Sequence record: OL539444.1
Length of the DNA stretch: 49,765 nt
Strand: one strand, 5' to 3'
From: Escherichia phage_vB_EcoD_Punny
Every line of letters starts with the position of its first letter. Position 1 is the stretch's first letter. Position numbers and translations under genes: made by a program. The notes below the pieces were generated by a model. The model had not been told where the DNA came from. It saw only the letters and a program-made list of their open reading frames with translations, and did not search any database. This document shows, piece after piece, positions 5,397 through 47,772 of this stretch.

Positions 5397-5876
5397 ATGG
5401 CTCAGATTTCAGCAAGTTATCATGTTGCAATGGCTCGCGCCTTGCCTGGTCAAGTTTCTGACACTTCCGCGTATAACATCGACGGCGCTTGTGTTCTTGA
5501 TGGTGATGCAGGATCAACAATTTATGTTGGCGTTGGTGTTCAACATGGCGGAGTTAGCGCAAGCGGTGAGAAATTAATTAAGGCTATGGCAGCGTCTGGT
5601 AATGCTTATGGTGTTGCTATTCGATCCAACTTCCAGACCACATCTAAAGATGGTCGCATGGTTTATGAGGCTGGTAGCGGAATTAACGTAATGACTAAAG
5701 GGCGCGTTTGGATGGTATCTGTAGAATCGGAAGCGCCAGCATTCAAAACAGCTATCAAACTTGATAATTCAGGACAGGTTGATTTAACGTCTGGATTAAT
5801 TGAAACCACTTGGATCGCAACTGGAGACTTTACGGAATTCCAAGGTCTAAAACTCGTTGAGGTTCAACTGGTATAA
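5397..5876 (+). CDS. capsid-associated protein, paralog 1 (decoration-like position)
   Basis: 159 aa; shares YNIDG, NV.TKGR.W and a similar C-terminal ...VQL end with the next ORF; occupies the slot between scaffold and major capsid. Confidence 0.35.
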   Translation: MAQISASYHVAMARALPGQVSDTSAYNIDGACVLDGDAGSTIYVGVGVQHGGVSASGEKLIKAMAASGNAYGVAIRSNFQTTSKDGRMVYEAGSGINVMTKGRVWMVSVESEAPAFKTAIKLDNSGQVDLTSGLIETTWIATGDFTEFQGLKLVEVQLV

Positions 5877-30749: not shown

Positions 30750-31007
30750 ATGGAAAATATGACAGTTTATTTAATTGAATTTGGAGAGTGGTTGCTTTAT
30801 CGCGGCCTTGTGTGTGAAATGATCACAAAAGAGGGTCATCTAGAAAAGATCGATTGTGATTTATGGGAATTTACCGAATCTCTTGATATGAGTTTTGACG
30901 AAATAAAGGAATTACCGATTGAAGAATGGCCGATTAAAGTAAAAGCTGATCTTGATGAATTCGTTAAAGACTGGGAAATGAGAAACGGAATGATGAGAGC
31001 AGAATAG
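30750..31007 (+). CDS. hypothetical protein
   Basis: 85 aa acidic ORF; stop is the TAG inside the next dyad motif. Confidence 0.45.
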   Translation: MENMTVYLIEFGEWLLYRGLVCEMITKEGHLEKIDCDLWEFTESLDMSFDEIKELPIEEWPIKVKADLDEFVKDWEMRNGMMRAE

Positions 31008-31047
31008 CACTTTTTGTTAAAAATGCCCCGCGAAAGTGGGGCATAAT
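31004..31047 (+). promoter_or_regulatory. dyad-motif promoter unit P4
   Basis: ATAGCACTTTTTGTTAAAAA, 18-nt gap with TGCCCCGC-GAAA-GTGGGGCA hairpin (GNRA loop), CATAAT, leader CAACGAAACGAAA. Confidence 0.55.
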
Positions 31048-31079
31048 CATTTCAACGAAACGAAATTAGGATTTGCAAA

Positions 31080-36603: not shown

Positions 36604-36962
36604 GAGTATTTGGCCTCAAACAGATAAGCACCGCCAGCGGCAGAGAATCCAACTTCTTCCCGATACAGCGTGAAACGGTCGCCGTTTTCGTCGAACACGT
36701 ATCCAGCAACAGCACCTAACACGCGGCCTTGTTCGATCTGGTAACGCTTATCAGCTTTGAAAGTTTTCTTGATCTGCATGGAATGGTTTACCCATGTGCA
36801 TTTAATGGTTTTGGTCTTAACATTTCGGAATGTTAATCCGGTTAAGTTGGCGTGAATCCATTTCCCATCTAACTTAACGAAAGTATCATCATTTTCGTCT
36901 ACCCGCGCTTTGTATAGGCGGTTATCAGATCCGATAAGTTTGATTGATTTGAATTTAGCCAT
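36600..36962 (-). CDS. hypothetical protein
   Basis: 120 aa ORF 32 nt downstream of the M3 -10; AAGGAGA RBS. Confidence 0.5.
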   Translation of the reverse strand: MAKFKSIKLIGSDNRLYKARVDENDDTFVKLDGKWIHANLTGLTFRNVKTKTIKCTWVNHSMQIKKTFKADKRYQIEQGRVLGAVAGYVFDENGDRFTLYREEVGFSAAGGAYLFEAKYS

Positions 36963-39485: not shown

Positions 39486-39718
39486 TTCATCACCTCAATT
39501 GAATAAATACTTTCAACGCCTGGCGCGTATAACCGCTTTCCATCTTCAGTTATGCAAAGACAAAGGGCAAGGCCGCGATTGTCTGAAATATGCAAGTCAT
39601 TTTGTCTATCCATCAAAATTTCATATTCGCGATCTTCATCAAAGCGCCAAACTCTTAACATGCACTTTCCAGATGATTTAACTTTTACTTTCTTTCCGAT
39701 GAAATTTAAACGACTCAT
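39482..39718 (-). CDS. hypothetical protein
   Basis: 78 aa ORF overlapping its neighbours by 4 nt. Confidence 0.4.
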   Translation of the reverse strand: MSRLNFIGKKVKVKSSGKCMLRVWRFDEDREYEILMDRQNDLHISDNRGLALCLCITEDGKRLYAPGVESIYSIEVMK

Positions 39719-39933
39719 TGTGCAGCCTCCACAGTTTCAAATACGGTATTGAATGCCAGAAGTTTAAATTTCTTGCCAGGCTCAACCACTGCGATATTCC
39801 AGGTAATGCCGCCGTGATATGCAACCATATCATCAATATCAACAGTAACCTCAGTACCTTTTTTGAACAATCCTTTTTCGTGGCTCGCATCGCGTACAGT
39901 AACCACAGTTTCGAATTGAGTTTGAATTTCCAT
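39715..39933 (-). CDS. hypothetical protein
   Basis: 72 aa ORF. Confidence 0.4.
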   Translation of the reverse strand: MEIQTQFETVVTVRDASHEKGLFKKGTEVTVDIDDMVAYHGGITWNIAVVEPGKKFKLLAFNTVFETVEAAQ

Positions 39934-40007: not shown

Positions 40008-40292
40008 TTAGCCAAACGCTTTAATTTCGAAATCTTCTTCTGCCTGATTAGCAACCGCCGTGAACATTTGCTCAAGAGTTTCAAATCCGAAATGTTTAGC
40101 GATCTCATAAGCCGCTTTACCTTCCGTCTGCATGTTTAGCGCTTCGCAATAGTGCATTTCCAGATTGTTCAGGTATTTGTTGCCAGTTGGGATTGCTGCG
40201 TCGATTTTGTCCCACACGATCCAAAAGTTTGTTTTGTCAGCCGCTGCGAGTACAAAGTTTGTCTTGTCTACTGCAATCACTAAGTTTTCCAT
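40008..40292 (-). CDS. hypothetical protein
   Basis: 94 aa ORF 31 nt downstream of the M6 -10; first gene of the leftward cluster. Confidence 0.5.
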   Translation of the reverse strand: MENLVIAVDKTNFVLAAADKTNFWIVWDKIDAAIPTGNKYLNNLEMHYCEALNMQTEGKAAYEIAKHFGFETLEQMFTAVANQAEEDFEIKAFG

Positions 40293-40323
40293 CGTGTAAT
40301 CCTCAGTTCGTTTCGTTGATGTA

Positions 40324-40368
40324 ATTATAGCAATTCGCGTCTGATTGGTTTTAACAAAAAGTGCTATT
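40324..40368 (-). promoter_or_regulatory. dyad-motif promoter unit M6
   Basis: On the minus strand ATAGCACTTTTTGTTAAAAC, 19-nt gap, TGcTATAAT, leader CATCAACGAAACGAA. Confidence 0.55.
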
Positions 40369-40376
40369 CATGCGAT

Positions 40377-40404
40377 AGACCGATTGGTCTAGACCGTTTG
40401 GTCT
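40377..40404. promoter_or_regulatory. tandem palindromes AGACCGNTTGGTCT x2 (operator-like)
   Basis: Two adjacent 14-bp imperfect palindromes immediately upstream of unit M6. Confidence 0.45.
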
Positions 40405-40407
40405 AAT

Positions 40408-40530
40408 GAACGCATCGTTTTGTGTATCGAACGCATTCACGATCACGTTATACGATCACAATATGATCATGTTGATGATTGATGTGTGAGTTGATGTGAT
40501 TTGATTTGATTAGATTTGATTATATTTGAG
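40408..40530. repeat. GATC cluster and GATTT/TGATG iteron-like tract (possible origin or regulatory region)
   Basis: Repeated GAACGCAT, three closely spaced GATC sites, then TGATGATTGATGTG and five GATT(T/A) pentamers; no ORF. Confidence 0.4.
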
Positions 40531-40667
40531 TAGTGAGAGAGCAGAAATAATCACACCTTGCCGATCAGAGAAAACTTTTCCCGCAAAAAATCACTCCAGG
40601 CTCAGCTCGTTTCGTTTTGTTCCTCGCCGTTCCCATCCCGACCTTCCGCAGTTTAGCGCAACGTTAC

Positions 40668-40740
40668 ACAACACGTATAACAACAAAATATCTATATAAT
40701 ACATTGAAAAGTAAGATAATTATTATTATATATCTATATT
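40668..40740. repeat. conserved AT-rich intergenic element, copy B
   Basis: Matches 20171-20245 (two identical blocks of 20 and 25 nt). Confidence 0.7.
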
Positions 40741-40956
40741 GTTATATAACTTGTTTTGCTTGTTTCTCATGATATTGATACCCCTTCACGGATTTATAGA
40801 GTATAAAATTATAAGATAGGTGCTCTTATTTATTATAGGTGGCGGTGATTTTTAGCGAAATGGTGTAACGATTTAGAACATCGTTGATTTGAAAGGATAA
40901 ATTTTCAATTACTGTTACATTGCGTGATGTTTTTGTTGCCTAATCAAAAATAACAC

Positions 40957-40984
40957 TTGACGCATAAGCCAGGTTTGCTAAGAT
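40957..40984 (+). promoter_or_regulatory. sigma70-like early promoter
   Basis: TTGACG, 16-bp spacer, TAAGAT; about 34 nt upstream of ATG 41019. Confidence 0.5.
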
Positions 40985-41018
40985 TTCTGCATCGAGCAAC
41001 AACGGAGGATAACCAATC

Positions 41019-41306
41019 ATGGTAAGGGGCAAAATCGTAAAGCGTGACCTATCCATAGTTGATGCAACGCCAGAAGATGCAACCAAAGATATCATGCGCC
41101 TAATGTACATAGCGCGGATACTGGAGGCTGCAAAACCAAACAGGCTGTATTACATCGACATTAAGGCATCCGGTCGCGACGTTAATTCATTGCGCCAGGC
41201 AATAAACACGATTGCTAAAGAGGATCGCAGAACAATTAAGACAATAACCACTGATAACGGCTATATCGGCTTTGTTATCATCGACGTTAAAGAAGCGTTT
41301 GTGTAA
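41019..41306 (+). CDS. hypothetical early protein
   Basis: 95 aa ORF with GGAGGA RBS; first gene of the rightward early array. Confidence 0.5.
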   Translation: MVRGKIVKRDLSIVDATPEDATKDIMRLMYIARILEAAKPNRLYYIDIKASGRDVNSLRQAINTIAKEDRRTIKTITTDNGYIGFVIIDVKEAFV

Positions 41307-41993: not shown

Positions 41994-42037
41994 ATAGCAC
42001 TTTTTGTTAAAACTCGATTGGGGTAGTTTGGCATAAT
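41994..42037 (+). promoter_or_regulatory. dyad-motif promoter unit P5
   Basis: ATAGCACTTTTTGTTAAAAC, 18-nt gap, TGgCATAAT between GGGGTA and TACCCC, leader CATCGAAACGAAACGAGG. Confidence 0.55.
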
Positions 42038-42068
42038 TACCCCATCGAAACGAAACGAGGAAAACACA

Positions 42069-42828: not shown

Positions 42829-42872
42829 ATAGCACGAATTGCTAAAACTAAATCAGGGGAATTTGTTATAGT
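42829..42872 (+). promoter_or_regulatory. dyad-motif promoter unit P6
   Basis: ATAGCACGAATTGCTAAAAC, 18-nt gap, TGtTATAGT flanked by AGGG/CCCT. Confidence 0.5.
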
Positions 42873-43519: not shown

Positions 43520-43696
43520 ATGAAATTATATGGTGTCGCTGGAATCGCTTTCTTTTCTTTGTGGATTGCTGCAATCGCTGGCTGGATCATGAATATCGTT
43601 GAAATGTTTGGCGATATCACAACCAACGAATTAATCATTCGCGCAATCGGGATATTCGTTGCACCTGCTGGCGCATTAATGGGCTGGTTCATGTAA
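43520..43696 (+). CDS. small membrane protein (58 aa)
   Basis: Two hydrophobic segments; CCGGAGAA RBS. Confidence 0.4.
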   Translation: MKLYGVAGIAFFSLWIAAIAGWIMNIVEMFGDITTNELIIRAIGIFVAPAGALMGWFM

Positions 43697-43739
43697 TAGC
43701 ACTTTTTGCTAAAACAAAATTTCGGGGTTGCGGTATAGT
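43696..43739 (+). promoter_or_regulatory. dyad-motif promoter unit P8
   Basis: ATAGCACTTTTTGCTAAAAC, 18-nt gap, TATAGT in the loop of GGGGT/ACCCC. Confidence 0.55.
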
Positions 43740-43769
43740 GACCCCACACAAAACAAAGAGGATCAGATA

Positions 43770-45208: not shown

Positions 45209-45252
45209 ATAGCACTTTTTGCTAAAACTTGCTAAGGCACATTTGATAAAGT
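45209..45252 (+). promoter_or_regulatory. dyad-motif promoter unit P10
   Basis: ATAGCACTTTTTGCTAAAAC, 18-nt gap, TGaTAAAGT in the loop of AAGGCACA/TGTGCCTT. Confidence 0.55.
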
Positions 45253-45285
45253 GTGCCTTGTCGAGACAAGCAAGGAGAATGACAC

Positions 45286-45764: not shown

Positions 45765-46332
45765 AATTATCATCCTTAACGCGCCTCCAGGTGCTGGTAA
45801 AGACACAATCGGCAAGATGATTTCTTTCTATTCGCCTGGTGAGCAATGCCGCATCATTAGCTTTAAAGAGCCAATGTTTGACATTGCATTAGCTATCCTG
45901 GGCAAAGAGAACTATCAGCGTTTCATGCTGGCTTACGATGACAGAGAGCAGAAAGAAAGGCCACAAACGTTCCTGATGGGTATGTCGCCTCGAGAGTTCA
46001 TGATCTGGATTAGCGAGGATGTGATCAAGCCTAAATTCGGCAAGGATTATTTCGGCGTAAGGTTTAACCAGAAAGTAAAAGAGTGTGATGCTCCTGTTGT
46101 TTGCACTGATGGTGGTTTTCCAGATGAAATTATCGCTCTAATCAATGCTGGTAATGAGGTGAAGTTATGCCGATTGCATCGCGACGGGTTCACGTTTGCA
46201 GGTGATAGCCGCAACTACATTCGAATCAATCCCTATTACCAGAAAAACGGATATAGCGAGCACGATTACTTATTAACCAATGAAAAGCCGATGATTACAG
46301 TTAGCGAAATCATTCGCGATCACCTTAAATAG
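45757..46332 (+). CDS. P-loop kinase (nucleotide/polynucleotide kinase-like)
   Basis: N-terminal Walker A NAPPGAGKDT; 191 aa; near the HAD phosphatase. Confidence 0.5.
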   Translation: MAKIIILNAPPGAGKDTIGKMISFYSPGEQCRIISFKEPMFDIALAILGKENYQRFMLAYDDREQKERPQTFLMGMSPREFMIWISEDVIKPKFGKDYFGVRFNQKVKECDAPVVCTDGGFPDEIIALINAGNEVKLCRLHRDGFTFAGDSRNYIRINPYYQKNGYSEHDYLLTNEKPMITVSEIIRDHLK

Positions 46333-46372
46333 CACGAATTGCTAAAACTTGCGCAAGGCCATTTGTTATAGT
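46329..46372 (+). promoter_or_regulatory. dyad-motif promoter unit P11
   Basis: ATAGCACGAATTGCTAAAAC, 18-nt gap, TGtTATAGT in the loop of AAGGCCA/TGGCCTT. Confidence 0.55.
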
Positions 46373-46407
46373 GGCCTTATTCAAGAGAAGCAACCGAGGA
46401 ATAATCG

Positions 46408-47200: not shown

Positions 47201-47698
47201 ATGAAAGCTAAAAATGATTTTTATAACTACCTGACAAAAGGCCGTGACTATACCGTTTTGAATAGCATAGATACTCTTTACCTGGTTGTTGCTGATAATG
47301 GCGTTAGAGTTTGGCTTGATAAAACTCTTTTCGAAAGCGAGCACCTAAGCAACGCAAAGCGGATCGCAGATGAAGCAAGCGCATTAGCAGAGCGTGAACG
47401 AATTCGCGATATAGTAGCGGAGCAGGTTAGAAATTCATGTTCGCCTGGTGGCGATATCTTCAAATCAATGCGCGGTGAAATGACGGTTGGAATTCAAGAT
47501 CGCGTAATTTCAAAGTCAGTTGATTCTGTAATTGAGAATGCGCGATTCAATGCGTTGATTAACTCAGAGCATAACGAATACGTCAAAGCATTAGAGCAAC
47601 TGCGTGAAGTGCTGCGAGTGCCGGAAGGTGAAAATATTGTGACTCATGCAAAGGTTGTAAGAGCGTTGGCTGATGCGCTGATTGGTCTGCAAAAATAG
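47201..47698 (+). CDS. hypothetical protein
   Basis: 165 aa ORF with AAGGAGAA RBS; stop is the TAG in the next motif. Confidence 0.5.
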   Translation: MKAKNDFYNYLTKGRDYTVLNSIDTLYLVVADNGVRVWLDKTLFESEHLSNAKRIADEASALAERERIRDIVAEQVRNSCSPGGDIFKSMRGEMTVGIQDRVISKSVDSVIENARFNALINSEHNEYVKALEQLREVLRVPEGENIVTHAKVVRALADALIGLQK

Positions 47699-47738
47699 CA
47701 CTTTTTGTTAAAACTTCCGCGAGGGCATTTGTTAAAGT
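47695..47738 (+). promoter_or_regulatory. dyad-motif promoter unit P12
   Basis: ATAGCACTTTTTGTTAAAAC, 18-nt gap, TGtTAAAGT in the loop of GAGGGCA/TGTCCTC. Confidence 0.55.
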
Positions 47739-47772
47739 GTCCTCATTGAAGCGAAACACGGAGATTTAGGAA

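Follow-up and report, generated by a model that had tools for sequence, protein, structure and literature searches.

The window, by which we mean the whole 49,765-nucleotide stretch of Escherichia phage vB_EcoD_Punny DNA that was analyzed (OL539444.1), contains a 726-bp divergent intergenic region at positions 40293-41018. To its left lies a leftward cluster of small genes, the first of which occupies 40008-40292, and to its right an array of small rightward early genes that starts at 41019. The interval is 100% identical to that of Citrobacter phage vB_CfrD_BlueShadow (Drexlerviridae, Tempevirinae, Tlsvirus) and 94-99.9% identical to those of other Tlsvirus phages, which places the window among the T1-like phages of the genus Tlsvirus. 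An earlier note on this DNA had described the interval as free of open reading frames (ORFs). It is indeed a divergent intergenic region, but it does contain short ORFs, although these are unconserved. The 38-aa ORF known as gp56 in BlueShadow (40940-41056, minus strand) overlaps the first rightward gene at its start as well as the rightward promoter, and is probably spurious. Scans of the whole window with Rfam and for tRNAs returned no match, so an RNA gene at the locus is not indicated, and no terminator-like site was found in a scan of the region. When folded as single-stranded DNA, positions 40371-40475 form just two small 5-bp hairpins (z = -1.85).

Predicted promoters face outward on both sides of the region (Table 1), and the rightward one is the equivalent of promoter P01 in the TLS supplement (PMC11447400). 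The ribosome-binding site of the first rightward early gene is surrounded by a leader, (A)ACCAATCA(GGAG/TG) (window 41005-41021), that is common to the TLS, MSK, KLB26, Motto and PHB17 loci and thus to several subfamilies. In the leftward cluster, the small gene at 39718-39933 (minus strand) matches PF25180, 'Phage antiviral trigger protein Gp54' (E=7e-31). The AT-rich segment toward the right of the region includes a 35-nt imperfect inverted repeat (40667-40701 / 40724-40758); its CTATATAATA element is invariant in 12/12 relatives despite mosaic surroundings, and ATATA-rich stretches resembling the segment are also found in T1, MSK, Motto and KLB26.

Table 1 Features of the divergent intergenic region, with their coordinates in the window
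Feature	Position	Strand	Basis and remarks
Extended -10, TTGcTATAAT, of the leftward early promoter	40324-40333	-	Sequence reading; transcription predicted to start near 40317
Partial third copy of the palindrome arm, GTCTGATTGGT	40338-40348		9/11 match; flanked by the M6 unit and the -10
Promoter-associated repeat unit 'M6', TGAATAGCACTTTTTGTTAAAAC	40348-40370	-	Window has 20 copies; this one at ~-32 to -50 relative to the leftward start
Twin 14-bp palindromes AGACC-N4-GGTCT in tandem, operator-like	40377-40404		Exact matches; Tandem Repeats Finder
21-nt direct repeat, two copies (40395-40415 / 40416-40436) ending in GAACGCAT	40395-40436	+	Repeat search; 81% identity
Three Dam sites, (C/T)GATCA	40441-40468		Gaps of 13 and 11 bp
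GAT(G/T)-rich tract, proposed landing pad of the small terminase	40473-40529	+	Markov statistics; Tandem Repeats Finder; comparison
Inferred zone of the first (pac) cut	40489-40580	+	Ends of relatives; packaging rightward to terS ~9.4 kb away
GTAGTGAGAGAG motif closing the tract	40530-40541	+	By-eye comparison; similar versions in TLS, T1, MSK and Motto
Fourth GATC	40563-40566		98 bp right of the triple; lost in PHB07 and F115
AT-rich segment, ATATCTATAT repeats and conserved CTATATAATA	40676-40850		Outside the stretch 40377-40530; sole origin-like feature nearby
Rightward sigma-70-type promoter TTGACG-16-TAAGAT, TG extension	40957-40984	+	Ahead of the first rightward early gene (41019)

The stretch at 40377-40530 combines palindromes, direct repeats, clustered GATC sites and a tract of very short repeats. 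The 49.8-kb window has no exact AGACC-N4-GGTCT match other than the two palindromes, AGACCGATTGGTCT (40377-40390) and AGACCGTTTGGTCT (40391-40404), which Tandem Repeats Finder reports as a 14-bp unit repeated 2.1 times. Their junction forms a third palindrome, GGTCTAGACC. That two adjacent palindromes lie here had been recognized in the earlier note, and they are present, exact and far beyond chance. To their right, GAACGCAT is found at 40408-40415 and 40429-40436; in some relatives the site of the 21-nt repeat carries an inverted-repeat version, TGAACG-N3-CGTTCA. The tract itself begins with TGATGATTGATGTG (40473-40486) and includes five exact GATT(T/A) pentamers running head to tail (40498-40522), all of which, together with the repeated GAACGCAT, were recovered where the earlier note had placed them. 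Tandem Repeats Finder detects a 5-bp period repeated 8.6 times across 40487-40529, and weak 10- and 20-bp periods are also present. A density of five GATT[TA] per 40 bp is reached nowhere else in the genome and in 1/200 Markov simulations, and the nine GAT[GT] per 70 bp are a genome-unique, strand-specific maximum, with more than seven seen in 0/100 simulations.

The three GATC sites (starting at 40441, 40454 and 40465) lie within ~30 bp, as had been claimed, and form the densest triple in the genome. Their density is nonetheless not unusual: random placement of 290 GATC sites would give ~4 such triples, and density alone thus proves nothing. Genome-wide, GATC is in excess (290 sites versus ~185 expected from base composition), and its sites are spread more evenly than by chance, a single triple falling within 30 bp where ~4 are expected.

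We aligned the intergenic regions of 12 Tlsvirus genomes. The block at 40349-40587 is the best-conserved part of the 726-bp region, with pairwise identities of 0.80-0.95 compared with 0.45-0.78 in the flanks, both of which are mosaic and consist of several unrelated alleles. Comparison with the intervals of related phages, which the earlier note had proposed as a check, thus reveals a selectively conserved block. It was found in 46 records, all of them Tlsvirus-like, and a search of viral contigs for further loci through the adjacent DUF7174 protein yielded seven loci, mostly from the same GenBank phages. One entry, OR786094, is named 'Streptococcus phage MBBL140' and lists Streptococcus agalactiae as its host. 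Its genome is typical of Tlsvirus and begins where the TLS record does, and the host label looks doubtful.

Within the block, GATGATTGATGTGTGAG (40474-40490) is invariant in the 12 genomes, as is most of the GATT tract. Among the columns of the GATC triple 1/12 is variable, compared with 12/28 flanking columns (Fisher p=0.03). The module comes in two alleles, CGATCAC/CGATCAC/TGATCAT and TGATCCT/TGATCGT/TGATCAG, in which all three GATC cores are kept and many flank bases differ. It is this conservation, and not density, that makes the triple meaningful. The palindromes are conserved in 11/12 genomes. The exception, CF1 DK-2017, carries unrelated sequence in exactly that segment and retains everything to the right of it.

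Mapped and recorded genome ends of related phages fall in this same block or at the equivalent spot. For TLS, the pac cut was placed by restriction mapping: a submolar HindIII fragment measured ~5,882 bp, and packaging proceeds rightward (German et al. 2024, PMC11447400). In the TLS record the HindIII and EcoRV sites lie at 5876 and 2733, respectively, in agreement with the published map, and its base 1 aligns to window position 40489 when sequence is taken across the record ends. This mapping is of gel resolution and the final base comes from a six-base resemblance to the pac of phage P22, since the authors chose 'AGATTT' by analogy with it and opened the record there (PMC11447400). The best match to the P22 22-mer is 13/22 in the region, versus 15/22 elsewhere in the genome. 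Being no better than chance, the match gives the 'AGATTT' assignment no statistical weight, while the mapped location stands.

The T1 record (NC_005833) begins at the equivalent spot, 84 bp right of the same leftward promoter repeat unit. Two GATC sites and GATGTGATT / GTTGATGTGATTG motifs flank its base 1, with which an annotated 2.8-kb repeat region, presumably the terminal redundancy, also begins. In the Rtp-like phage MSK (MW057918), the published PhageTerm forward terminus is at 36,862 (PMC8421802). Within the equivalent intergenic region, this position is ~150 bp to the right of the promoter unit and closely follows a GAT(G/T)-rich tract and a GTGAGTGAGTG motif; it corresponds approximately to window 40550-40565. 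The records of GS71, GS156 and GS166, which are described as PhageTerm-validated headful pac phages and whose starts are only implicitly PhageTerm-based, open at window 40546/40547. The MSK terminus and these three starts are 20-60 bp further right than those of TLS and T1. The YSP2 record ends at window 40578. Several records, such as that of LL5, open here by convention alone, and the papers on LL5, Sazh, 22 T1-like phages, KanT1, SH6 and YSP2 gave either no terminus data or records opened by convention. A first cut at this site is thus indicated indirectly, through homologues, namely TLS, T1, MSK and the GS71-type records.

Comparison of five Drexlerviridae lineages separates the elements of the stretch from one another. 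A GAT(G/T)-rich tract marks the equivalent spot in four of the five and is weak in KLB26. Within the stretches compared, the GAT[GT] maximum coincides with the record start in TLS and T1, lies 50-120 bp left of the mapped cut in MSK, and in Motto the tract directly adjoins the promoter repeat unit. Only Tlsvirus carries the palindromes and the GATC triple, neither of which is present in the equivalent regions of T1, MSK, Motto and KLB26, with two GATC sites in T1 and none in MSK. Since the tract is near family-wide and the palindromes are a lineage-specific addition, the repeat tract is the best candidate for the packaging signal. T1 and MSK share with Punny the order of promoter unit, lineage-specific palindromes, GAT(G/T) tract, GTGAG(A/T)G motif and genome end, but show no nucleotide homology to the stretch, and TTGCA/TGCAA palindromes replace AGACC/GGTCT. 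TLS is homologous, with ~89% identity over the aligned part at the same divergent intergenic position, and has the same palindromes, GATC triple and GATT tract; Punny and TLS differ in which alleles they carry at the GATC flanks and across the tract's left half.

Considered together, the end locations observed in relatives, the conservation pattern and the motif statistics lead us to regard it as fairly probable that the stretch is the left, non-packaged side and the core of a T1-like headful pac region, abutting the first leftward early promoter, with the palindromes as a separate operator-like module. Under this reading, a small terminase of the P22-gp3 type would assemble late in infection on the GAT(G/T)/GATTT tract, the large terminase would make its first cut within the tract or just to its right, and packaging would then proceed rightward by headfuls, across the early genes and terS. 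The pairing of proteins with repeats in this scheme, like the precise position of the cut in Punny, is our inference.

The small terminase of the window indeed belongs to the P22-gp3 family (PF16677), to which the TLS supplement also assigns its counterpart (PMC11447400), and the large terminase carries PF17289. Among the matches listed, small-terminase identity is 91% or higher for every record that carries the block, and no more than 67% for Drexlerviridae outside Tlsvirus; the site and the small terminase are thus conserved together. We looked for co-variation of the small terminase with the alleles of the GATC flanks and tract and found none. Identical small terminases occur with both alleles, and therefore the flanks are not read by this protein.

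Known pac sites resemble the arrangement proposed here to different degrees. P22 shares the Pfam family of the small terminase, and GATTT is also part of its pac core. However, the P22 site is a single asymmetric 22-bp sequence inside gene 3, whereas in Punny a repeat array lies in an intergenic site ~9.4 kb upstream of terS, and the two show no significant 22-mer similarity. In phage SPP1, the pac (pacL-pacC-pacR, reportedly described by Chai et al. in 1995) is said to have repeated small-terminase boxes on the non-packaged side, in an intergenic promoter region. This box arrangement is the one we propose for the tract. The SPP1 sequence and terminase family are unrelated to those of Punny, however, and a right-hand box is seen in the SPP1 scheme only. 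Phage T1 reportedly begins packaging lambda DNA between genes P and Q, a result attributed to Drexler in 1984, and we found no outstanding GAT[GT] cluster in the lambda P-Q interval. The T1 record-start palindrome, TGCATGGTGTGCAAC, has a 14/15 match in lambda ninG (42840-42854), within that interval, but the match is statistically weak (E-value ~7).

The palindromes appear to belong to the leftward promoter. From the positions of the M6 unit and the extended -10, they lie at ~-60 to -87 of this promoter, with the AGACC-N4-GGTCT sites centred at ~-66.5 and -80.5 of its predicted start. They are thus two-fold symmetric 14-bp sites, in tandem, at a promoter, as is characteristic of tandem operators. 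TGATTGG of the partial third arm is kept in 11/12 aligned sequences, including two in which the adjacent promoter sequence differs. In CF1 DK-2017, the loss of the palindromes leaves the rest of the block in place and the small terminase is 91.6% identical to that of the window, the value found in most of the genus, which makes the palindromes a separable module. Their presence does not follow the alleles of the flanking genes, and T1 and MSK have TTGCA/TGCAA-type palindromes of their own at the equivalent position. Most likely, therefore, judging from the sequence comparison, the palindromes are a genus-specific module separate from pac and a predicted dimer-binding operator of the leftward promoter. 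No DNA-binding or helix-turn-helix domain was found in the genes flanking the intergenic region, and the one regulator that is annotated, phrog_2856, matches a YdaS-type helix-turn-helix weakly and is encoded ~13 kb away. The junction of the palindromes, ATTGGT-CTAG-ACCGAT, bears some resemblance to operators of the GntR/PdhR type, ATTGGT-N3-ACCAAT, with a spacer that differs by 1 bp.

Two further leads on these sequences were considered and set aside. AGACC is also the type III restriction site of EcoP1I, but the motif is only mildly depleted genome-wide (29 observed versus 42 +/- 6 expected). GATTGG/CCAATC is found more often than expected across the genome (45 observed versus 27 +/- 5); its sites are mostly in coding DNA and show no tie to the promoter units.

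The M6 unit is one of the 20 copies of ATAGCACnnnTTGnTAAAA in the window, all of which are oriented with transcription and are followed ~18 nt later by a TATAAT-like hexamer. The 21-nt repeats listed for TLS, where their function is unknown, are the same units (PMC11447400). Many of the units start at the stop codon of the upstream gene. In ~14/20, a GC-rich hairpin of 6-11 bp comes next, either ending at the -10-like hexamer or looping around it, as at 41994-42060, 43696-43760, 45209-45275, 46329-46395, 47695-47760 and 31004-31060 on the plus strand and 37020-36960 on the minus strand; the M6 unit beside the palindromes has no such hairpin. The arms vary among copies with complementarity kept (GGGGTA/TACCCC, AAGGCAC/GTGCCTT, GGCGCA/TGCGCC, CCGGAT/ATCCGG and others), and this covariation among paralogous copies suggests a selected DNA or RNA structure.

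The proximity of the palindromes to the promoter also raises the question of whether the whole stretch could serve transcription alone, with palindromes, GAACGCAT repeats, GATC sites and GATT tract acting as sites through which a repressor, Dam/SeqA and nucleoid proteins control the two divergent early promoters, and pac lying elsewhere in the intergenic region. The palindromes do adjoin the leftward promoter unit, a partial third arm lies inside the promoter, and other lineages have their own palindromes in the same position. Furthermore, an ATATA-repeat pac has been proposed for T1 (quoted in PMC8421802), and gel mapping is unable to separate positions 200 bp apart. However, the MSK PhageTerm peak and the GS71-type starts adjoin the GAT(G/T) tract and not the AT-rich part, which is poorly conserved in the genus. 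The tract also sits far from either promoter for an element that would act on it directly: the distances are 140-200 bp to the leftward start and >420 bp to the rightward promoter. We thus consider a purely transcriptional role for the stretch rather unlikely.

The earlier note had viewed the interval as a candidate control hub or replication origin. The first part stands, in that the block is conserved and the palindromes sit at a promoter, as expected of a cis-acting hub; the second finds little support. As an origin, the short repeats would be iterons, the GATC sites an oriC-like methylation/SeqA element and 40676-40850 the unwinding segment, activated by the divergent promoters. In favor of this view are the AT-rich segment between divergent promoters, the conservation of the GATC cluster, the selective conservation of a non-coding region, and the fact that the T1-like origin is unmapped (PMC11447400); moreover, a region could serve both as an origin and as pac. 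Yet the term 'iteron tract' used in that note does not fit, as the repeats have a unit length of 5 (or 10 or 20) bp instead of the 17-22 bp of iterons, and the sole 21-nt repeat has two copies at 81% identity where iterons need at least three. The TLS paper states that iteron-like repeats are absent from the whole genome (PMC11447400). No DnaA box (with up to one mismatch) was found in 40200-41100 and no IHF core was found either. No initiator-like or replication-domain gene is adjacent, the primase and helicase genes being 11-17 kb away, and GC skew merely tracks gene orientation and the direction of transcription. The AT-rich segment is 150 bp away and mosaic among close relatives, whereas the genome ends map to the conserved block. 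An origin at this site is therefore improbable. That the stretch is functionless low-complexity DNA or chance repeats is hardly credible: the GATC triple alone is no denser than random placement would make it, but chance does not account for the exact twin palindromes or the pentamer run, the block is conserved between two mosaic flanks, and other subfamilies have the tract at the corresponding place.

Returning to the pac reading, the GATC triple invites comparison with phage P1. The P1 pac (NC_005856) consists of 4+3 TGATCA/G hexamers with spacings of 7, 12 and 15 bp, a 96-bp gap that holds the annotated cuts and an IHF site, and then spacings of 12 and 11 bp; its function is regulated by Dam (Sternberg and Coulby, summarised in PMC10028697). 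Similarly, in Punny the (T/C)GATCA sites are phased about one helical turn apart (13 and 11 bp, compared with 12 and 11 bp in the right-hand P1 cluster), the gap to the next GATC is 98 bp compared with 96 bp, and the cut would fall within this gap. Both phages encode their own Dam enzyme: the Dam-like methyltransferase reported in the earlier note was confirmed in the window by a match to PF05869 (E=2e-63). In TLS, virion DNA is GATC-methylated (PMC11447400). The resemblance is one of organization only. P1 has 4+3 hexamers rather than 3+1, and here the single right-hand site is not kept in all relatives (PHB07, F115). Cleavage in P1 involves PacA/PacB instead of a P22-gp3-type small terminase, and the IHF core WATCARNNNNTTR has no match in 40293-41018, whereas P1 has an IHF site between its clusters.

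The three phased GATC sites are a conserved Dam-site element through which methylation could be sensed, either for pac use or for the promoter. A more specific and speculative proposal, which we put forward as doubtful, is that Tlsvirus phages gate the initiation of packaging by adenine methylation as P1 does, with an unrelated terminase of the P22-gp3 type. If so, the phage Dam would have to fully methylate the three (C/T)GATCA sites left of the cut before pac could be used. This would account both for the presence of dam in lytic phages and for the retention of the three GATC cores while their flanks drift, and would constitute a convergent second case of methylation-controlled pac cleavage.

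The location of pac has already been published for TLS, with 'AGATTT' alone named as pac and no palindromes, GATC triple or tract described (PMC11447400). What the present analysis adds is its probable anatomy: a family-wide tract, phased Dam sites and separable palindromes. The pac of T1-like phages has so far been placed to within a few hundred bp and 'defined' by a six-base analogy to P22. For annotation, the region would be better labelled as a pac region than as an origin. T1-like phages often contaminate laboratories and industrial processes, act as generalized transducers and are candidates for phage therapy, and the anatomy suggested here offers targets for mapping their ends, for constructing packaging-defective or plasmid-packaging derivatives, and for investigating a role of Dam beyond anti-restriction.
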